A DNA stretch of 63,821 nt, the filler included, from Basidioascus undulatus (taxonomy: Eukaryota): assembly GCA_000826855.1 (NCBI GenBank). It is 4 parts of 4 records of this genome, joined end to end, with 100 filler letters (N's around TTAATTAATTAA, not from the genome) between each part and the next. Parts side by side here need not be neighbours in the genome. Positions count along the whole stretch, not along the records: positions 15,107 to 30,112 come from JTLS01000672.1; 3 more parts are not named here. One strand, 5' to 3'. The notes under the pieces were generated by a model. The model was not told the DNA's origin and searched no databases. It saw only the letters and a list, made by a program, of their open reading frames with translations. Position 1 is the stretch's first letter. Each line of letters starts with the position of its first letter. Position numbers and translations under genes: made by a program. Of the stretch, positions 8,686-48,857 are shown one piece after another.

Positions 8686-11600
8686 ATGTCCGCCGTCGTC
8701 CGCACCAAGTCCATCAAGGAGCTGTCCGCGCACCCGGGCGCGGCAGCCCGCACAGTCAAGAGCCTCTCCCTCGCCGACGCGGCCGCCGCGGCGGAGTTCG
8801 CGGAGAAAAAGCGCGTGTGGGTCCCCGATGAGGCGGAGGGCTACGTTAGCGGGTGGGTCGTCAGGGAGGACTGCGAGGATGGGAAGTGGGAGGTTCGGAC
8901 GGGGGAGCAGGTGAGTCGGTGTTCTCCTCTCTTTCTGCATTCTGTCTGGAGGGTTCTGGGTCGCATGGGATGGGGAGCTGTGTATTGAATGGATGTGATG
9001 CTGCACGCTCCAGCCTTCCGAGCAGCCACTGACTATGGACCACCGCCTCCGCACGCACAGACCCGCTTCGTCAACCCCGACGACCTCTCCAAGCAGAACC
9101 CGCCGCGCTTCGACAGCGTGCAAGACATCGCCGAGCTCACGTTCCTCAACGAGGCCTCGGTCGTGCACAACCTCCGCACTCGCTACGGCGCGAATCTCAT
9201 CTACGTGCGGCCGCTCCCTCCCTCCATTTCCGCATCCTCCTCGCGTTCCTTCGAGTCTTCCTGGTCGTTGCGGAGAGGCTAATGATGTGTGTTTGGGGGG
9301 TCCAGACCTACTCGGGTCTCTTCCTCGTCGCCGTCAACCCGTACCGCGACCTCCCCATCTACACCGACGCCATGGTCGCCGCGTACCGGAACCGGCGGCG
9401 GGAAGACAATGCGCCGCACATCTTTGCGGTTGCGGACCGCGCGTGGAACGACATGATTGCCGAGCGCGAGAACCAGAGCGTGCTCATCACGTCCGTCTCC
9501 CTACTTCCCCCCTCCCTCCTCCCCTCACCCCGCGTTTGACTTGGTGACTGGTGGGGTAGCGGCGAGTCCGGCGCAGGCAAGACGGAGAACACGAAGAAGG
9601 TGATCCAGTACCTCGCGGCGATCGCGTCCGAGTCGCACTCGCCGTCATATGACCCGACATCCATCGCGCACACGCGCTCGCCGTCCCGCCCGACCTCCTC
9701 CTTCCGGCGCCAGCCCTCGTCCTTCGCCCCTCCCTTGCCCTTCCCCGCATCCGCCTCCTCCACCGGCGCGCTCGGCTCCCTCGAGGCGCAGATCCTCCAG
9801 GCGAACCCAATCCTCGAGGCGTTCGGAAACGCCCAGACCGTAAGGAACAACAACTCGTCCCGCTTCGGCAAGTTCGTGCGCATCGAGTTCGCCAGCGGGG
9901 GCGCGATCGCGGGCGCGCATATCGACTGGTACTTGCTTGAGAAGAGCAGGGTCACGAACCGCGCGAAGGACGAGAGGAGCTTTCATGTGTTTTATCAGAT
10001 GCTCGCGGCGGCGCCGGAGGACATGCGGGGTGAGTTTGAGGCGGAGTTGAGGGAACTGGGAGAAGGGAGAGAGACTGATTTGGGGTTGGGCTTGGTGGGC
10101 GGGAAGGCGCGCTCTTACTCGAGGGCGGGATTGATGACTACGAGTACCTCAAGCACACGCGGCGCGAGGTGGACGGGATCAACGACCGGGACGAGTGGGC
10201 GCACCTCAAGGTCCGTCTTCCCTGTCTTCCCCTGCTCTCCCTTCTCCTTCCCTCCCACCTTTCCCATCCCCCACCCCGCACATCCGGCTTACCCTGCCCC
10301 CCACTCAATAGACCGCACTCGACGTAGTCGGCTTCACGCCCGATGAGCAGCTCGACCTCTTCCGGATCGTCGCCTCGATCCTGCACATCGGGAATATCAC
10401 GCTCCACTCCTCTCGCTCGACGGACCAAGCGTCCCTCTCCTCCCCGCACGCGCTCCAGCGCGTCGCGCAGGTCCTCGGCCTCCCCCCAAAGGACTTCACG
10501 ACCGCCCTCCTCTCCCCACGCGTGAAGGCGGGGCGCGAGTGGGTCTCCCAGGCGCGTACTGCGCGGCAGGTCGCGGACGAGATGGCCGCGCTCGCGCGCA
10601 CACTGTACGAGAAGAGCTTTGGCGCGCTCGTCGAGCGCATCAATCGCGCGCTGGGGGAGATGGAGGGCCGCAGGGCGGGAGCGACGTTCATTGGGGTCTT
10701 GGATATTGCGGGATTCGAGATCTTCCAGAGGAATAGCTTTGAGCAGCTTTGTATCAACTATACGAACGAGAGGCTGCAGCAGTTCTTTGTGAGTTTTGGG
10801 AGTTTTTTTTGCTTTTGGGGTGGGCGCGTAGCTGACGTGAAGGGGCACAGAACCACCACATGTTCGGTTCGTCTGATCTCGCGCTCGAGGAGGAGGTGGT
10901 GGTATAGGGGTTGGAGGCTGATGTAGGTGGTCGGTCGGTGAACAGTCCTCGAGCAGGAGGAGTATGCGCGAGAGGGCATCCAGTGGGACTTTGTCAACTT
11001 CGGTCTCGAGTGCGTTCAGTCTGCCCTTTCTCGCTGTTGAAAGAGAGCTAACAGCGCGCGGTGTTTGCGCTACAGCCTCCAGCCGACGATCAACCTCATC
11101 GAGAGCACGGACCCGATCGGCATCCTCTCGTGCCTCGACGAGGAGTGCATCATGCCCAAGGCGACAGACGTCACCTTCACCGAGAAGCTGCACGGGCTCT
11201 GGGCGGGCGGGGCGACGAAGGACATGAAGGCGTCGCGGATGGCGCACGACCAGCCGCCGAGCGAGGACGCGCTGGCGGCCGCGGGCAAGTACGCCCCCGC
11301 CAAGTACGCGCCCGACGGGTTCGTCATCCAGCACTACGCGGGCAAGGTCGAGTACCGCACGGAGGGCTGGCTCGAGAAGAACAAGGACCCTCTCAACGAC
11401 CACCTTACGCGCACGCTCGCCGCGTCGTCGGACAAGTACGTCGCGAGCCTGTTCTCGGACTATGCGGACGAGGACGCGGGCGCGGGCGCGAAGCGGCGCG
11501 CGGTGAAGAAGGGCGCGTTTAGGACCGTCGGTCAGCGGCACAAGGAGCAGCTGACGAGCCTGATGGCGCAGCTCGGGTCGACGCAGCCGCACTTTGTGCG

Positions 11601-14600
11601 CTGCATCGTCCCCAACAGTCTCAAGAAGCCGGGCAAGATCGACACGCCGCTCGTGCTCGACCAGCTACGCTGCAACGGCGTGCTCGAGGGCATCCGCATC
11701 GCGCGCCTCGGCTACCCGAACCGCCTCCCCTTCGCCGAGTTCCGGAACAGATACGAGGTCCTCACGCCCGGCGTCATCCCGCGCGGGTACATGGACGCCC
11801 GCAAGGCGTGCCAGCGCATGCTCGACGCGCTCGCGCTCGATGGTGCCAGCTTCAAGATCGGCACGAGCAAGATCTTCTTCAAGGCGGGCGTGCTCGCAGA
11901 GATGGAGGAGCGAAGGGACCAGCACCTCTTCGACATCTTCTCCCAGGTCCAGGCCGCCGCAAGGCGCTACGTCGCGCGCAGGCAGATCAAGAAGATCCTT
12001 AACCGCGCGACTGCGGCGCGCACGATCCAGCGCAATGCTCGCATCTATATCGAGCTCCGCGAGTGGCCATGGTGGAACCTCTACACCCGCGTTCGGCCCC
12101 TCCTCGCGGCGACGCGCTCGGACCAGGAGCTCAAGCAGAAGCAGGTGCGTGGTGGAGTTCGAGCTGCTGCTGGAAAGGGAAGAGCTGATCGTGGTCGTGG
12201 GGTGCGTATGGGTAGGCCCACATCAAGTCACTCGAGGACGAGCTGTCGACGGTCGCGCAGGACCTGGACGCGGCGTCGAGCGAGAACAACAAGCTGCTCC
12301 GGCAGATCGAGGCCGTGGAGAAGGACCTCGAGTCGGAGCGGCACCTGAGCCTGAGCAACCAGGAGCTGCTCGCGCGCTCGAAGGCGCAGGAGGCCGAGCT
12401 CCTCGAGGAGCGCGCCGCGCTCCAGGCCGAGATCGACACGCTCGAGTCGCAGCTCGAGCGCTCGCTCGCGAGCATGAAGAGCACCGAGGCAAAGTACGCC
12501 GAGCTCAAGGACGCGTTCGACGTCGCTTCCGAGCACCTCGTCAGGCTTGAGGCGGCGGAGAAGGAGTGGAAGGAGCGCGAGATCGTCCTCGCTGATACCG
12601 CCGGCGTCAAGCAGGACGAGTGGGACGCGATTGTCCACGAGAAGGAGGCGCTCGGCGCGAACGTCGAGGAGCTCAAGGCTGCCGTGAGGAGCAAGGAGGA
12701 GGACCTCGAGCGTTCGACTAAGCGCTTGCAGGCGACGACGGCGGAGCTCGAGGCGAGGCTGGACGCTGCTGTCAAGGAGGGGTGAGTGCGGCGCTTTCAA
12801 GATGGTGGGGTTTTGGTCGTACTTGAGATGCTGACGCGCGCCACTGGTTTTCGCCTTGCAGCGAGACGCACAAGGCCAAGGTCGAGTCCGCCACCCGCGA
12901 GGCGCGCCAGCACAAGGACCGCGTCTCGGAGCTAGCGCGCACTGCGGCCGACTTCCAGGCGCTCATCGCGAAGCGCGAGGACGACGTCGCGAGCGTGGCG
13001 GGCCAGCTCAAGTCGGCCAAGTCGGAGCGGGACAAGCTCGCGCGCGAGGGCGCGGACCTGCACGCGCGGATCTCGACGCTCTCGAGCCAGCTCGAGGCGC
13101 AGAAGCTCGACCGCGACCAGATCGCGGAGGTCAAGGCGAAGCGGGAGGCGGAGCTCGACGAGCTCCGCCAGCTCCTCGACGAGAAGGTCTCGGAGGAGAC
13201 GCGCCAGAAGGAGGTCGAGCAGAGCAAGGCCGCCGAGCTCGCCGACTTGCGTGCACAGCTCGATCAGCTCCGCGCGCAGCACATCGACGACGCCCGCGTC
13301 GCCAGCGAGCACGCCGCTAAGCTCCAGGCAGACCTCGAGGAGGAGCGCCGCAAGCACGGATCCCTCTCGCGCTCGCACGCGTCGCTGTCGACTCGCGCGG
13401 AGACCGAGTCGGCCAGGCTCAAGGAGGCAGAGTCGAAGGCTGACAAAATCGCGCAGGAGAAGCGCGCTGTCAACGCCGAGCTCCAGAACATCCGCGCCAG
13501 GCACCTCGAGTCCGACGCTGCGCTGACGGAAGCTCGGGCGAGCAAGGATGTGCGTTGGCGCCGTGACCATTCCGTATCTTGACTGCCGATGCTGATCATT
13601 GGTTCTGTACGGCACACAGGCACTCAGCAACCAGCTTGCCGAGGCGACACGCAAGCACCACGACTTGGAGGATGCGATCCTGCAGCTCGAGCGCGAGCGC
13701 GACTCGTACATGCGCCAGCGCGACCAGCTGCGCGCGCAGGCGGACAGCATCGTCGCCGAGCTCAAGGCGGACGAGCAGAAGCGCGCGGCGCGCCACGCCG
13801 CGGACGAGCAGGCCCGCCTCGGCGAGATCAACCAGCTCAAGGAGCACGTCGCCGCGCAGGACAAGGCGCTCGCCAAGATGCGCGCGGACCTTGCGGGCAA
13901 GGACGACGAGATTCGCTTCATCAAGGCGCGCGGGTCCAAGACGGTCGTTGAGCACATCCACGTGCGTTGGCATCACCTTTCTCGTGGTACAGGAATCTGA
14001 CAGCTCTCGGGATGTTCCTTAGGTCCTCGAGGAGGCGAAGCGCGTTACGGACCGCCAGCTCGCCGAGGCGCGCTCCGAAGTCTCGCGGATGGCGACGTAC
14101 ATCAAGTCGCTCGAGAAGGGCAGGTCGCGCCTGACCGGCGAGCAGGAGGACCTCATGCGCGAGATGGAGCGTCGCCGGATCGCCGCGGAGAAGGACGCGA
14201 AGGCGCACGCGCAGAAGACGTCTACAGTCGTCGCTGAGGCGCGCAAGGAGCGTCTTGCCCGCGAGACTGCCGAGGCGACAGCACGCCGTCTCGAGAAGGA
14301 GGTCACCGACACGCGCGACCGCCTCGCGGACGCGACGAAGCAGATCTCCAACATCCAGCGGTCAAAGAGCAACCTCGAAGCGGAGCTCGCGTCGTTCGCG
14401 AACGAGAGCAAGTCGCAGGCGTCGCTCAAGCAGATCCACCAGGACTCGGACAGCCGCTTGAAGCAGATGGAGGCTCGCCTACAGGAGTCCGAAGCCGCAC
14501 GGGCCTCGCTCGAGCGCGCGGCGCGCAACTACCAAAAGCAGACGTCGGACGTGCAGCGTCTCCTCGCCGATAAGGCGCCTATCGACGACACGCTCCGCGC

Positions 14601-15006
14601 CCAAATCCTCCGCGACCTCGCCGACACGTCCGCGGCGATACAGCGCGAAATGACTGCGCGCGAAGACGCGCTTCGCTCGCACAAGCCCGAGAAGCCGCTC
14701 CACGTCTTCGGCAACATGGCGCCCTCGAAGCGCAACCGCACCATCTCCGCGCCCAACGGCAACGACGTTCACGGCGCCGGGCTAAGGGCGCGCGACGATC
14801 GCTCGGATAACCAGTCGCAGCTCCTTCGCGGCCAGCTCGACATCCTCGAGCTCCAGGTCGCCGCGTCTGACCGCGTCCGCCAGCACCTCGAGGACCAGGT
14901 GCGCGAGATGACGCACGACCTCGAGGCGAGCGACGGGACGGCGCAGTCGCTCGAGGCGACGCGCGCGAGGCTCGCCAAGCAGAACGCCCGCCTCGCCGAG
15001 CTCCTC
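8686..15006 (+). CDS. myo2: Class II myosin heavy chain (S. pombe myo2 / S. cerevisiae MYO1 type), cut at the contig end
   Basis: N-terminal KKRVWVPD, P-loop [62 protein letters not shown] region, [14 protein letters not shown] and a long coiled-coil tail. Includes a 16-nt micro-exon at 10851-10866 (NHHMFV). Confidence 0.96.
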
Positions 15007-15106
15007 NNNNNNNNNNNNNNNNNNNNNNNNNNNNNNNNNNNNNNNNNNNNTTAATTAATTAANNNNNNNNNNNNNNNNNNNNNNNNNNNNNNNNNNNNNN
15101 NNNNNN
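15007..15106. other. Artificial contig linker
   Basis: N44-TTAATTAATTAA-N44, with stops in all six frames. Confidence 0.98.
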
Positions 15107-16343: not shown

Positions 16344-16804
16344 GATGGTGCGCGAGTTGGGGTTGGGAGTGGGGTGATGGGTAGCGTAGGGTGTGGGATG
16401 AGTAGGGATACCGAGCGGGACGCTGGTTGGCCCCCATGACTTTCTGAGTACTGAGGAGGACGTTGTTGTACGATGCGCTCGATCGCGGACTATTCTTGTT
16501 GTGACACACATTGCTTGCTCCCGGGAGATTGGCGTTTGCGTGTGGCCGCGCTTCCATGGTCCGGGGGAGTGCAGAATGTTTCTTAGTTTTCCGCGAGTGA
16601 TACTTCTGGGCGGCGGACACTACTATAAGGCTAAGCACCTCCACAGTGCACAAATTCTCGTGTTACAGTCATGGCCCTTTGGGAAATCAGAGATGGGTCC
16701 CCACCGTGGACTGCGTTACGGTAACTGTGTAAAGTAATGAATGGTCTTCTTTGAGCTTGCAGACACTTACTTTAGGACTGAGTGTAATAAAATGCTCAAG
16801 CAAC

Positions 16805-16810
16805 AAAAAA
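16805..16810 (-). terminator. RNA polymerase III terminator (T6)
   Basis: TTTTTT begins 1 nt after tRNA position 37; the same arrangement occurs in copy 2. Confidence 0.8.
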
Positions 16811-16811
16811 G

Positions 16812-16884
16812 TCGTAGTCAGATACTCTACCATTGAGCCAGCCGGCCGTGACCGACGCAGGGATCGAACCTGCAACCCCCTGAT
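16812..16884 (-). tRNA. Circularly permuted tRNA-Arg(ACG), copy 1 (3' half 16884-16849, 1-nt spacer, 5' half 16847-16812)
   Basis: Minus strand reads ATCAGG GGGTT GCAGG TTCGATC CCTGC GTCGGTC A / C / GGCCGGC TG GCTC AATGGTA GAGT A TCTGA CT ACG A. Swapping the halves gives a complete 72-nt cloverleaf. Confidence 0.93.
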
Positions 16885-16892
16885 CTCGACTT

Positions 16893-16903
16893 CCACTACC
16901 TTA
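16893..16903 (-). promoter_or_regulatory. A-box-like element in the leader of permuted tRNA copy 1
   Basis: TAAGGTAGTGG resembles the A-box consensus TRGCNNARYGG; same position as TAAGCAAGCGG in copy 2. Confidence 0.55.
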
Positions 16904-18042
16904 GGCGAAGCGGTGTCTCTTATTTTGCCTTATGCACTCATGTTCGTTGAATATCTAGCAGCCCAGAAGATGGCAGGATTCAGATATACTGGTCTTCAGG
17001 CAGAAAATATTGACAGTCAAGAGATTTCAGCACTGTGATCAGGGCCAGGGCTCGTTATAGAATGCAGCCAGCGCCAGACTGCAGTGTCACCACACGCAAG
17101 AGGCCATATGCTGTCTGGTCAGCGCTGATCAACGCTTGCAGGAGTTACCTCCACCCTTTTATTGGGAAATAAAAGTTAACTTCCATCCTCCACGTTGGTT
17201 TATTTCTGTGGAAACAGGGCCCTCGTGCACCTTGCAATGAATATCCGTTAGCATCAAGCTTCCTGCTGAGGCTTAAGACCAGAGCTATGTGACACCCTCA
17301 CCGACTCCCAAATCCTGAGCATGACTTCCAGAAAACTCGCAGTGGAGGGCGTGCGGTCACACAGACATGAACGGCGCGATAGCGGGTCGGAGGGGCAAGG
17401 TAAAGGCGGAGGCCGTAGCCCTCGTGGACGCACGGAGGGTTTTGAAGACAGGGAAGGTCGAGGTGCTCGGGACGAATTGGAGAGCGGATTTGGCTCAGAA
17501 GATTAGGAGGAAAGGGAATTTTCCATCAGGTTGCTTTCGGCGAGGCGAAAGTCCAAGGAGGGCTGGGCGCGGTCTTCCACTCGAACAAACCATACGGTAG
17601 CATGTAAGGCTTCCGCTGCATGAGATTCACCTGCTCTAGAGAATGTGAGAGTTATTTTTAAAGTGGAAGTGGAAGACCAGATTTCTCTCTACTCTCCAAC
17701 TGCGTTTCTAAGTCTCTAAAGGCAAGGTCGGAACCGCAGGCGCCGCGGCGTGCTGTTTTCGCTCGAAATTGTGCTACAGCCCGGATATTCCTCCAGTCAG
17801 TTTAAAATTGAAGTTTGGAGAGAGGTCTTCTACCAGTGTCCTCCCTCTGATACGAGCTTGCAAGCGCTCAGTATGAGCACTTGCTGTAGAGCAAGGCTAG
17901 TGGCCTTCTCCATTCCACTACACGGCTAGTAGCGGTAGAGGGACTTCTGTTCAATGACTCAGGCGAGTCGAGCCCAAGTACATCTTGGGATCACTTTTGT
18001 GCTGCGAGTCGAGAAAAATAACAAACGTGTGAATTCAATATT

Positions 18043-19351: not shown

Positions 19352-19357
19352 AAAAAA
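19352..19357 (-). terminator. RNA polymerase III terminator (T6)
   Basis: TTTTTT begins 1 nt after tRNA position 37. Confidence 0.8.
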
Positions 19358-19358
19358 G

Positions 19359-19431
19359 TCGTAGTCAGATACTCTACCATTGAGCCAGCCGGCCATGACC
19401 GACGCAGGGATCGAACCTGCAACCCCCTGAT
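19359..19431 (-). tRNA. Circularly permuted tRNA-Arg(ACG), copy 2 (3' half 19431-19396, 1-nt spacer, 5' half 19394-19359)
   Basis: All 72 mature positions are identical to copy 1; it differs only at the spacer base and in the leader. Confidence 0.93.
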
Positions 19432-19439
19432 TTCGACTA

Positions 19440-19450
19440 CCGCTTGCTTA
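19440..19450 (-). promoter_or_regulatory. A-box-like element in the leader of permuted tRNA copy 2
   Basis: TAAGCAAGCGG, same spacing to the B-box as in copy 1. Confidence 0.55.
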
Positions 19451-21432: not shown

Positions 21433-24400
21433 TCATGCGACCCACTTGCGAGCGGAGACGAAGAGCGACTGCCACGGGCCGGCGCCCTTCCAGGCCTTAA
21501 CCTGCGCGGGGTCGACCCAGGCGTTGGACTCGGCGAGGGTGCTGCGCTCGGGGCTGCCAGAAAGACAGGTCAACAGTGCACGACTAGGACGTTAAACGGG
21601 AAGCAGGGACGCACTGAGGCATGACCATGAGGAAGCGGCCGTTCGCGGAGGAGACACCGGCTGTTCGGATGAAGAGGGCGTGTCAGATCGGCTATAGGCT
21701 ACGGAGGCGGGAGACGACAAACCAATGGCGTCGGGAGAGCCGTTGATGTTGGCGGGGTACTTGACGGCCGGCGCGCCCTTCGAGTCGATATACCGCAGCG
21801 CAACCAGGCCCTGCTTCTTCAGCGCCTCGCGGTCCACGTCCGAGCGGAACGTCGCGCGGCCCTCGCCGTGGGCCTGAGCAGAAAGAAAGGACGTAGTCAG
21901 CAGCCCGCCCAACTCAGACGGGAAGGACAGACACAAAGCAACATACGATCGCAACGGGGAGCCTCGAACCCGCCATGTCCTTGAAGAAGACCGAGTTGGT
22001 GTCCTTAGGAATCTCGACCTGCGCCGTGCGGCCCTCGAAGCGCGAGCTCCGGTTCGGCTTCCACACGGGCCAGTGCTCCGCGCCGGGGATGATCTCGCGG
22101 AGGTTGCCGAACAGCTGGCAGCCGTTGCAAACGCCGAGGGCGAACGTGTCCTCACGCTCGCCGAAGAAGCGCTCGAACTCTGCGCGCGCGGTCGGGTTGA
22201 GAAGGATCGACTTGGCCCAGCCGTTGCCTGCGCCGAGGACGTCGCCGTACGAGAAGCCGCCGCACGCGGCGAGGCCGCGGAAGGCGTCGAGCGAGACCGC
22301 GCCGGAGAGGATGTCGGACATGTGGACGTCGACGGCCTCGAAGCCGGCGGCGTGGAAGGACCACGCCATCTCGACGTGCCCGTTCACGCCCTGCTCGCGG
22401 AGGATGGCGACCTTGGGGCGGGCGGTGAGGGCCTGCGGGAGGCGCTCGACCGCCTGCGCAGGGTCGAACGTGAGTTCGTACGACAGCCCCCCGTCCGCGT
22501 CGTCCGCGATCGCGTCGTATTCCTCCTGCGCGCACAACGGGTCGTCGCGCAGGCTCTGCATCCGGTACGAGGTCTCCGCCCACGCTTGCTGCAGCGCCGC
22601 GCGCGTCGCAGTAAAGATGGGGCGCGAGCTCTGCGCGACGGTGATCGTCTGGTCCGTGCGATCCGTGCTGACCGTGCCGATCGCGTGGATGGCGGTTGTG
22701 GGAAACCCGGCCTTGGCGAACACCGCGGCAAGGGTGGGGAGGTCGGAGCGGCGGACCTGGACGACGGCGCCGAGCTCCTCGTTGAAGAGCGCCGCGATGG
22801 GGTCCGCACCGAGCGAGTCAACCATGAGCTCCACGCCCGCGCGCCCAGCGAACGCCATCTCGGTCACAGTCGTGAAGAGACCACCGTCGGAGCGGTCGTG
22901 GTACGCGAGCACGAGGTCGGGGTGCTCGGCCCGCACGAGCTGCGTGGCGGCGAAGAAGGCCTTGAGCACCGCAGCATCCTCGACGTCAGGCGCCTCGCTG
23001 CCGATTTGCTTGAAGACCTGGGCGAGCGCAGAGCCGCCAAGGCGCTGCTTGCCATTGGCGAGGTCGAGGAAGACGAGTGCAGTGTCGCCGACGTCGGTCC
23101 TGGGAATCAACGGCAACACGTGTAAGCTCAAGAATCCAGATATTAACGCATTGCAACATTGCGAATGACTCACCGAAGCTGGGGCGTCCAGGACTGGGAG
23201 ACGTCGAGCACAGGCGCAAAGGCAGTGACGATGAGGGACAGCGGCGCAGTGACCTGCTTGTCCTCGCCCGCGTCCTTCCAGCGCATGCTCATGGACATCG
23301 AGTCCTTGCCGACGGGGATGCCGACGCCGAGCTTGGGGCAGAGATCGATGCCGATGGCCTGCACGGCCTCGTACAGGCGCGCGCCCTCACCCTCGTGCGA
23401 CGCGGCCGACATCCAGTTCGCGCTCAGCTTCGTTCGCGAGAGGTCCTCGATCCGCGCCGCGGCGAGGTTAGTCAGCGACTCGGCGACGGCCATCCGCGCG
23501 GAGGCGGGCGCGGAGAGCAGCGCCAGCGGAGTCCGCTCGCCCATCGCCATCGCTTCGCCCGCGACGGCATCGAAGCCGTAGGAGGTGCGGGTGACGGCGA
23601 CCTACGAGAAAGCCGGGGTCAGTTGAAGGAAGAAAATGGGGAGAAGAAGGGGAAGAACGCACGTCAGCGACAGGCACTTGCCACGGGCCGACCATCTGCT
23701 CGCGCGAGACGAGACCGGTGATGCTGCGGTCGCCGATGGTGATGAGGAAGGACTTGGAGCCGACGCTGGGGAGGTGCATGACGCGGTCGACCGCGGTGGC
23801 GAAGGTGTCCTCGAGACAAGGTGAGTTGGGGAGGTACGAGGCAAGGGACGAGTCGAAGGGGACGCGGGGCGGGTTGGCGGTCAGCGCGTCGCGGTGCATC
23901 TTGGGCGGCTTGCCGAACAGCGTGGACATGGGAAGGTCGATGGGCGTGTTGCCGAGCAGGCGGTCCGTCACAACAAGGCGCTCCTCGGCGGTCGCGACGC
24001 CGACGATGGCATACGGACAGCGCTCGCGCTTAGCGAGGGCCTCGAAGGCCGCGAGGTTCTCTGGGCCGACGGCGAGGACGTAGCGCTCCTGGGACTCGTT
24101 GCACCAGATCTCCATGGGGCTCATGGATTTGTCGTCGACGAGAACGTCGCGGATCTCGAAGCGCGCGCCGAGGTCCGAGTCGTGCACGAGCTCGGGGAGC
24201 GCGTTCGAGAGCCCGCCCGCGCCGACGTCGTGCACGCTCTGGATCGGGTTGCGCTCGCTGAGGGACACGCACGCGTCCAGCACCTGCTGGCACCGTCGCT
24301 GCATCTCGGGGTTCTCGCGCTGGACCGACGCAAAGTCGAGCTCGGCCGAGGACGCGCCCGAGGCCATGGACGAAGCGGCACCGCCGCCGAGACCGATGAG

Positions 24401-25783
24401 CATGCCGGGACCACCGAGGACGATGAGGTGCGCCTCGGGCGTGATCTTGGACTTGTGCGCGAACGCGGGGCGCACGTTCCCCATCCCGCCCGCGATCATG
24501 ATCGGCTTGTGGTACCCGCGCACCTCGGTCTTGCCGTCCTTCGAGAGCGGCACGGTCTCGGCGAAGGTGCGGAAGTAGCCCGCGAGCGCGGGGCGGCCGA
24601 ACTCGTTGTTGAACGCGCTTGCGCCGAGCGGGCCCTCGAGCATGATGTCGAGCGCGGAGGCGATGTGGCTCGGGCGCCCGAAGTCGGTCTCCCACGGCTG
24701 GACATGCCCGGGGATGAGCAGGTTCGAGACGGTGAAGCCCGCAAGGCCGGCCTTCGGCTTCGACCCGCGCCCGACGGCGCCCTCGTCGCGGATCTCGCCG
24801 CCGGAGCCCGTGGCCGCGCCGGGGTAGGGCGAGACGGCCGTGGGGTGGTTGTGCGTCTCGACCTTGACAAGGAGCGGCATGTCCTCCTCCGTCGCCGCGT
24901 ACGCCGGCGCCTTGCCCGGCTCCTGCACGACCGCGGCGAAGCGCGGGGCGCGCGAGCCCTCGAGCACGGCGGCGTTGTCCGAGTACGCCGAGATGGTGTG
25001 CTTGGAGCCGATCGTCTTCTCCGTGTTGCGGATCATCTGGAACAGGCTGAGGTCGCGCGGCTGCCCGTCGACCGTCCACGACGCGTTGAAGATCTTGTGC
25101 CGGCAGTGCTCCGAGTTGACCTGCGCGAACATGAAGAGCTCGACGTCCGTCGGGTCGCGCTTGAGCGCGGACGTCGGGTGCGCGACGAACGCCTGCACGA
25201 GGTACTCGATCTCGTCCGGCGCGAGCGCGAGCCCGAGGCGCGTGTTGGCTTCCACGAGGGCCGCACGCGCCTCGGCGGCCTCGCCGGGGAGCGCGACGGT
25301 GCGGAGGGGCGCAGGCGCGGCGGTGTGGAAGAGGTCGGCCTCGGCAGGCGGCGCGGGGAGGACGAGTTGCGTCATCCGGTCGTGGAGGAGGTTGATGAAC
25401 CCGCTAAGGTCGTTGAGGGTGAGCGTGCGCTGGTCGGACGTCCCGAGGACGAGCGCGATGCCGCGCTCGATGCGGTTGACCTTGCCGTCGAGGCGGCACA
25501 TGCGCGCGATATCAGTCGCCTTGCTCGACCAGGGCGAGATCGTGCCCGCGCGGGGGACGACGTAGAAGGTGTTGGAGGAGAGGACGAGCTCGGACGGCGA
25601 GTCGTAGACGAGGAGCGAGTCCAGGATCGCTTTGTCCTCGGCAGAGAGATCGGCGAGCGTCGAGACGAAGTGCACGAAGCGGGCGTCGAGCGAGGTGAGC
25701 GTGGGGATGAACGCCTGCGCCGAGCGGAGGAGGGACGCCCGCTTGGCGGGGGGGAGCGCGGCGGGACCAGCGAGGAGCAGCAT
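21433..25783 (-). CDS. ADE6: Phosphoribosylformylglycinamidine synthase (PurL)
   Basis: [110 protein letters not shown] at 21433-21435. Confidence 0.98.
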
Positions 25784-30112: not shown

Positions 30113-30212
30113 NNNNNNNNNNNNNNNNNNNNNNNNNNNNNNNNNNNNNNNNNNNNTTAATTAATTAANNNNNNNNNNNNNNNNNNNNNNNNNNNNNNNN
30201 NNNNNNNNNNNN
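30113..30212. other. Artificial contig linker
   Basis: N44-TTAATTAATTAA-N44. Confidence 0.98.
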
Positions 30213-48757: not shown

Positions 48758-48857
48758 NNNNNNNNNNNNNNNNNNNNNNNNNNNNNNNNNNNNNNNNNNN
48801 NTTAATTAATTAANNNNNNNNNNNNNNNNNNNNNNNNNNNNNNNNNNNNNNNNNNNN
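48758..48857. other. Artificial contig linker
   Basis: N44-TTAATTAATTAA-N44. Confidence 0.98.

Follow-up and report, generated by a model that had tools for sequence, protein, structure and literature searches.

Two circularly permuted tRNA-Arg(ACG) gene copies in a Basidioascus undulatus contig, probable members of a multi-copy basidiomycete family

Permuted tRNA genes are known from a red alga, from prasinophyte green algae, from a chlorarachniophyte nucleomorph and from one crenarchaeon, and have been treated as an algal or archaeal oddity (PMC3978253; PMC13578239). Table 1 of a 2014 review gives 34 such genes, distributed over Cyanidioschyzon merolae, four prasinophytes, the B. natans nucleomorph and Thermofilum pendens, in agreement with the occurrences given in an earlier note on the DNA analysed here; none of the 34 is an Arg(ACG) gene, and none is fungal or from a diatom (PMC3978253). 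The accessible text of a 2026 review of photosynthetic lineages, of the PlantRNA 2.0 preprint and of the tRNAscan-SE 2.0 paper likewise mentions permuted tRNAs only for algae and archaea. The earlier note knew of no fungal example, and in literature searches of papers outside subscription none of those listed describes a nuclear permuted tRNA from a fungus or a diatom, the listed papers on basidiomycetes all dealing with mitogenomes.

The closest described systems are the type II genes of C. merolae, Ostreococcus and Micromonas (Soma 2007; Maruyama 2010, via PMC3978253), in which, as in the fungal gene described here, both halves are on the same strand, the 3' half upstream, and the junction is at 37/38. 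Further shared features are a leader/trailer motif of the bulge-helix-bulge (BHB) type, a downstream T-stretch and an inferred circle followed by RNase P, tRNase Z and CCA addition (PMC3978253). By contrast with the algal type II genes, the fungal gene is found in an opisthokont host that lacks a plastid, has the identity Arg(ACG), apparently belongs to a large multi-copy family rather than being a single gene, has no evident TATA box, and has a T-run which is itself predicted to form the outer helix of the splice motif. Its spacer is a single nucleotide, compared with 5-74 nt in the known eukaryotic cases (PMC3978253). A 1-nt intervening sequence is shared with T. pendens tRNA-Tyr(GTA) (Chan 2011, via PMC3978253 Table 1), which differs in being archaeal, in having a 59/60 junction in the T-loop and an encoded CCA, and in carrying an extra intron at 37/38. 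The kind of system is known; new are its host lineage and isoacceptor, the size of the family and, for a eukaryote, a spacer of 1 nt.

The window, i.e. the whole stretch of B. undulatus DNA that was analysed (63,821 nt, including filler), holds two copies of the gene, both on the minus strand, the features of which are as follows.

16885-16903, minus strand: copy 1 leader block (-1 to -19), 14 of 19 positions the same as in copy 2, ungapped
16849-16884, minus strand: copy 1 3' half, 36 nt, with A38, the anticodon stem 3' strand, the variable loop, the T-arm (B box), the acceptor 3' strand and the discriminator A73
16848, minus strand: copy 1 intervening sequence (spacer), 1 nt, C
16812-16847, minus strand: copy 1 5' half, 36 nt, with the acceptor 5' strand G1-C7, U8, the D-arm (A box), the anticodon stem 5' strand and C32 U33 A34 C35 G36 A37
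16805-16811, minus strand: copy 1 trailer, T6 at 16810-16805 after C(+1) at 16811, presumed Pol III terminator and outer-helix 3' strand of the splice motif
19432-19450, minus strand: copy 2 leader block (-1 to -19), in which positions -6 to -1 read GTCGAA
19396-19431, minus strand: copy 2 3' half, 36 nt, exact match to copy 1
19395, minus strand: copy 2 spacer, 1 nt, T
19359-19394, minus strand: copy 2 5' half, 36 nt, exact match to copy 1
19352-19358, minus strand: copy 2 trailer, C(+1) at 19358 and T6 at 19357-19352

The permuted order claimed in the earlier note, the span of which (16805-16894) takes in the T-run and the gene along with some of the leader, is borne out by direct reading of the minus strand, with coordinates set by script: the 3' half stands ahead of the 5' half and the break falls at 37/38, A38 opening the 3' half and A37 closing the 5' half. 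With its halves exchanged, copy 1 is called by ARAGORN as a 72-nt tRNA-Arg(acg), as predicted, with all four stems of the cloverleaf paired (acceptor 7 bp, of which two are G-U; D 4 bp; anticodon 5 bp; T 5 bp); in the same call the D and anticodon stems, like the acceptor stem, contain G-U pairs. The anticodon loop so formed, C-U-ACG-A-A, has 7 nt with U33, and U8, A14, G18G19, U33, A37/A38 and A15/U48 can all be read directly in the sequence. The claimed T-run is likewise present, a C and then T6 following immediately on the 5' half in both copies. In the leader of copy 1, GTCGAG at -6 to -1 is complementary to the anticodon loop, GG is found at -10/-9, and an A-box-like motif starts at -19. 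The permuted gene is thus real, but the view of it as one gene does not hold; it belongs to a multi-copy family that includes the second copy in the window (19431-19359), which has the same permuted order of 36 + 1 + 36 nt.

As the earlier note had anticipated, standard scanners miss the gene. On the native window ARAGORN in normal mode reported no tRNA; with introns allowed it reported no genuine tRNA, its two calls being artefacts with 'introns' of 1.6 and 2.5 kb. Rfam, run at gathering thresholds, gave no tRNA and no match at all. A permutation scan was built on the principle that a permuted gene, when doubled, reads as an intron-containing tRNA: ~15,900 overlapping segments of 110 nt were each doubled and submitted to ARAGORN with introns. 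The whole window gave 30 matches, all in two loci with 15 each, and five shuffled windows gave 0 matches each; a chance origin is excluded. Other segment lengths returned the same two loci and one false call near 33.3 kb, a 'tRNA-Leu(gag)' (L=130) that is GC-rich and without the T-loop consensus, and which was rejected.

The comparison of the two copies is informative with respect to function. The halves are identical at 72/72 positions, the spacer (C versus T) being the sole difference within the 73-nt unit, and the trailer C-T6-G is identical at 8/8. Upstream, identity falls from 14/19 (-19 to -1) to 9/21 and then to 4/20 farther away; past the T-run it is only 12/52. That the mature-tRNA parts are invariant, while the spacer and flanks vary, points to selection or conversion acting on exactly the parts that would form the mature tRNA, a contrast that would not be expected of a neutral relic or a retro-copy. 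Together, the second copy, the conserved leader with its splice motif, the multi-copy family and the codon demand described below favour a working gene over a relic.

Evidence for further copies comes from the contigs of three sequencing runs, placed on 16770-16930 (161 nt) at 80% likeness. Runs X1 and X2 are from two separately filed studies, either of which may be the source of the assembly, so they are not fully independent; run X3, the kind of which was guessed as DNA and which shares its sample with X1, yielded 4 placed contigs, covering the repeated unit only, without the flanks of copy 1. From X1, 69 contigs were placed (36 at an identity of at least 99%, 22 at 95-99%, 10 at 90-95% and 1 below 90%) and from X2, 70 (38, 23, 8 and 1 in the same classes). 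Loose ends with many different sequences occur immediately beyond the T-run (16800-16805) and in 16879-16892, no more than 8 nt upstream of A38, and the summed contig depth drops sharply after the T-run and gradually through the leader. In X2, contigs that bridge the permuted junction (16826-16878 with 0 differences, and 16823-16878 with 1 difference) have depths of 298 and 175, against a word depth of 17-22 in the single-copy flanks; in X1 a junction-bridging contig has a depth of 473, against 49-54 in the flanks. The short contigs over the permuted junction are thus at ~8-17 times the single-copy depth, and, contig depth being a rough proxy for copy number, there appear to be dozens of loci with different flanks, about 20-30 by a rough estimate. 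A go-back joint, the mark of a conventional gene with the 5' half before the 3' half, is not listed among the 69 + 70 contigs at least 80% alike, which is weak evidence, such contigs showing presence rather than absence; and ARAGORN, with and without introns, finds no conventional tRNA-Arg(ACG) gene in the 64-kb window. Conventional tRNA-Arg(ACG) genes may be absent from the fungus, although any that have an intron or are less than 80% similar could have escaped the contig placement.

One contig of X3, 93 nt in length (window 16827-16889), has an arrangement in which the acceptor end, the spacer and positions 1-22 of the 5' half are joined directly to TCGAG and a complete 3' half. The contig suggests a truncated unit with a perfect A box immediately upstream of a complete one in at least one locus. 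It also hinted that the leader might derive from a decayed 5' half after tandem duplication, an origin without statistical support, the 45-nt upstream regions of the two window copies aligning with the 5' half no better than shuffles do (P = 0.55 and 0.89).

We consider it probable that the two copies are members of a multi-copy family (~20-30 loci) of functional, circularly permuted tRNA-Arg(ACG) genes of type II (37/38) in the nuclear genome of a basidiomycete; such a family would probably supply the ICG decoder for CGC, CGU and CGA, with maturation inferred to proceed through a circle and to I34. The main rival explanation, which we regard as unlikely, is that the copies are a non-functional, dispersed, tRNA-derived repeat, either SINE-like or arising as retro-copies of a circularised or tandem tRNA-Arg transcript, the real tRNA being made by conventional genes. 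The dozens of loci, more than in many fungal tRNA families, and the presence of diverged copies (22-23 contigs per run at 95-99% and 8-10 at 90-95%) are in keeping with such a repeat, and reverse transcription of a permuted or circular tRNA has been discussed as an origin (PMC3978253). By contrast, the repeated unit is only ~90-100 nt, ends exactly at the T-run and has no tail or body beyond the tRNA part, and target-site duplications are not evident, copy 1 having none of 6 nt or more and copy 2 a single 7-mer at -90/+13. In a neutral retro-copy the leader and body should diverge equally, yet the body is 72/72 whereas the leader is 14/19 and then 9/21; the spacer base is the only internal difference, the conserved tRNA nucleotides are all intact, and the contigs list no conventional arrangement.

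It is very improbable that the element is a tRNA-like non-coding RNA other than a tRNA, e.g. a Y-RNA-like molecule with a mimic module in the order T-arm, acceptor, D-arm. The sole Rfam match in the window, obtained only below threshold, is indeed to YrlA (RF02553), at 36.0 bits for copy 1 (E 2.8e-6) and 40.5 bits for copy 2 (E 1.1e-7), but these scores are far below the gathering score of 69. Because the tRNA-like module of YrlA shares the order T-arm, acceptor stem, D-arm with the fungal element, the match is read as an independent confirmation of the permuted arm order and not as family membership. YrlA is a bacterial family, whereas the host here is eukaryotic, and the fungal element closes into a full anticodon arm, with a perfect 7-nt loop (U33, ACG, A37) and a 5-bp stem, for which a Y RNA has no need; the copy number and the Arg codon demand also fit a tRNA. 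An assembly artefact, or the remains of a conventional tandem array with one unit's 5' half spliced to the 3' half of the next, is less credible still. Such a splice can be drawn, as ARAGORN with introns joins the 5' half of copy 2 to the 3' half of copy 1 across 2474 nt, and the metagenomic locus L079, with two units separated by 98 nt, admits a second reading as a conventional gene whose intron has 19 nt. However, a T6 terminator lies directly after each 5' half, making a 2.5-kb Pol III intron implausible, and an artefact is difficult to reconcile with a permuted junction that occurs twice in the window and in the contigs of two separately filed DNA studies (either of them possibly the assembly source).

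The neighbourhood of the copies points to a fungal host. The N-runs in the window (15007-15106, 30113-30212 and 48758-48857) leave both copies in one uninterrupted block with a gene for FGAM synthase, and a myosin heavy chain gene lies on the other side of the tRNA copies.

21914-25783, minus strand: FGAM synthase gene
11041-15000, plus strand: myosin heavy chain gene (motor domain and long coiled-coil tail)

The N-terminal 771 residues of the FGAM synthase carry the expected domains, and their best matches have 65-67% identity over 95% of the query, the named ones being all from Basidiomycota, including Microbotryomycetes and Agaricomycetes. The contig is thus fungal, and the possibility of a non-fungal contig, which had been set against the earlier claim, falls away; it appears, on the basis of these identities, to come from a lineage without a close relative in the protein database searched. 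The Arg codons of 7 neighbouring ORFs number 151 CGC, 33 CGT, 15 CGA, 35 CGG, 26 AGG and 5 AGA, so that the abundance of CGC in neighbouring genes, asserted earlier, is real (151 of 265), and 199 of the 265 (75%) are CGC, CGT or CGA codons, needing the ICG decoder, which fits a high gene copy number. The 6-kb stretch between the myosin and FGAM synthase genes, which holds both copies, has a lower GC content (~53%) and no long ORF. The N blocks are alike in shape, each having 44 N, 12 bases and 44 N, and the first of them interrupts the ORF of the myosin tail.

The B box of a permuted gene comes ahead of its A box, an order regarded as unsuitable for TFIIIC (PMC3978253). No clear TATA box is present upstream of either copy, which, like the order of the boxes, counts against the functional reading; T6 starts at +2 in both. 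The A-box-like motif that starts at -19 has 2 mismatches (copy 1) or 3 mismatches (copy 2) to the A-box consensus. When reverse-complemented by hand, two loose-end sequences from the upstream side finish with AGTGGTT and then (A)AGTCGAG, and one of the two has TAGCCTAGTGG in it, which agrees in full with the same consensus, so that at least one other locus carries a perfect motif. We hypothesise that the A-box-like motif of the leader restores the order A then B, with a spacing ~10 nt shorter than in a normal tRNA gene.

The BHB motif has a 4-bp helix between two 3-nt bulges that bear the splice sites, with the first two anticodon bases paired with the intron within the helix (PMC4090602), and the permuted-tRNA review gives a BHB requirement for permuted genes (PMC3978253). 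In models of the fungal transcripts, the leader and trailer can form a BHB-type splice-site motif around the junction, as for type II permuted tRNA genes. Both copies fit the canonical register, with one bulge formed by -2, -1 and A38 and the other by G36, A37 and C+1. The central helix has 3 of 4 pairs in both (C32:G-3, A34:U-5 and C35:G-6, with a U33xC-4 mismatch); the outer helix has 4 pairs in copy 1 (U+2 to U+5 with A-7, A-8, G-9 and G-10) and 3 in copy 2, where U-8 is unpaired. The C32:G-3 pair is at what we take to be the position of the anticodon-intron pair of eukaryotic pre-tRNAs. Such a pair appears in a figure legend of PMC4090602. The T-run would then act both as terminator and as one strand of the outer helix. 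In unconstrained minimum free energy (MFE) folds, too, the leader pairs with the anticodon loop and the trailer, although the folds differ in detail from the canonical register, copy 1 having a longer helix with 1-nt bulges and the anticodon stem of copy 2 being partly unzipped; these folds and the U-C mismatch count against the functional reading. For the eukaryotic endonuclease, which works by a ruler mechanism, single-stranded splice sites beside helices are enough (PMC4090602), so the predicted geometry would be adequate.

A route to mature tRNA can be proposed by analogy with the algal one, in which endonuclease cleavage and ligation give a circle whose acceptor loop is then opened by RNase P and tRNase Z, with CCA addition to follow (PMC3978253). 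Pol III would transcribe the leader, 3' half, 1-nt spacer, 5' half and C, stopping in T6; the tRNA body would then fold, with the anticodon stem extended by pairing of the leader with C32-C35 and with the U-run, so that the -1/A38 and A37/+1 bonds would each lie after the second base of a 3-nt bulge. The tRNA splicing endonuclease would take off the leader and trailer, and the fungal tRNA ligase would join A37 to A38, giving a 73-nt circle that RNase P would open 5' of G1. The enzymes for these steps would presumably be the fungal Sen complex, Trl1, Tpt1 and Tad2/Tad3. After one cut by RNase P the end would be A73-C or A73-U, of which the C may be kept as C74 and the U would need to be trimmed; with the spacer base thus trimmed or used, CCA would be completed and A34 deaminated to inosine. 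With a spacer of 1 nt the acceptor stem ends in a loop of only 2 nt, a sterically awkward closure that counts against the functional reading; the permuted-tRNA review, to which so short an intervening sequence is known only from T. pendens, notes its removal as unexplained (PMC3978253).

In budding yeast the splicing endonuclease is cytoplasmic, on mitochondria, and splicing comes after end-processing (PMC4090602). By contrast, on the route proposed for the permuted fungal gene, splicing must precede RNase P, which would raise the question of where in the cell it occurs. The organism, possibly culturable, may lend itself to the study of circular tRNA intermediates and of the removal of a 1-nt spacer. 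The fungal case extends permuted tRNA genes to non-photosynthetic opisthokonts, and standard annotation of such genomes would list an essential tRNA as missing. The chances seem to us about even for a more far-reaching joint reading, according to which there is no conventional tRNA-Arg(ACG) gene in the fungus, its main Arg decoder comes only from the ~20-30 permuted genes, the A-box-like element of the leader drives their transcription, and the circle is opened at a spacer base that can become C74. If this were so, circular tRNA intermediates would be an essential, high-flux step of translation in a fungus, and the system would be the first of its kind in opisthokonts; taken with the diatom-like loci described below, it would imply that permutation of tRNA-Arg(ACG) has arisen repeatedly outside the red and green algal lineages.

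Those loci were found by scanning metagenomes for a pattern with the T-loop, 18-28 nt, the D-arm and CTACG in permuted order, which gave at least 121 matches in at least 120 loci. Among the matches listed, the acceptor strands pair across the junction at 7/7 positions in 13 and at 6/7 in another 13, and 25 yield a tRNA after swapping, these being 13 tight conventional arrays, locus L067 and 11 permuted matches. The 11 permuted matches listed are in 10 loci (L085 duplicates L051), are without a conventional tRNA and have spacers of 5-10 nt, and in most of them a TATATA-type box lies upstream and the leader has a GTAG that is complementary to C32-C35.

L034, 1487-1564: permuted locus
L041, 1500-1577, minus strand: permuted locus
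L051, 1500-1577, minus strand: permuted locus (the same as L085)
L057, 1487-1563: permuted locus
L075, 1487-1564: permuted locus
L079, 678-852, minus strand: permuted locus
L108, 300-380, minus strand: permuted locus
L113, 287-368: permuted locus
L117, 162-239: permuted locus

The L057 contig encodes ArgJ, with 65-73% identity to named relatives that are all diatoms, adjoining a DUF3007 gene. The diatom-like loci share with the fungal gene the Arg(ACG) identity, the 37/38 junction and, mostly, a leader complementary to the anticodon loop, and L075 also has a T-run starting at +2. They differ from it in their 5-10 nt spacers, in having, mostly, a TATATA-type box, in lying on AT-rich contigs (34-47% GC) and in the sequence of the tRNA body. 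No close relative of the fungal gene is present among the metagenome matches listed, and the fungal junction pattern has 0 matches in the prokaryotic genome contigs scanned. The metagenome loci belong to another eukaryotic supergroup, so that they are likely to have arisen independently.

An alignment of 12 permuted Arg(ACG) sequences, from the metagenomes and the two fungal copies, is 96.0% paired in the cloverleaf register, compared with 30.8-56.7% when the partners are slid, a percentage that is partly built in by the prior selection of the rows by ARAGORN acceptance. Both sides have changed in 8 of the 21 pairs; in the acceptor helix pairing is 100% and 3 of the pairs have changes on both sides, and acceptor sequences that differ among the 12 rows and are complementary nonetheless are still informative. 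L067 (979-1040), on a GC-rich contig, has 7/7 acceptor pairing across a junction in permuted order, but its anticodon stem has only 4 bp on one side, and ARAGORN makes no clean call of it. In L079 (678-852, minus strand) two tandem permuted units lie 98 nt apart, and the first unit's 5' half with the 3' half of the second reads as a conventional tRNA-Arg(ACG) with a 19-nt intron; it is possible that this locus is a living intermediate of a tandem-duplication route to permuted genes.
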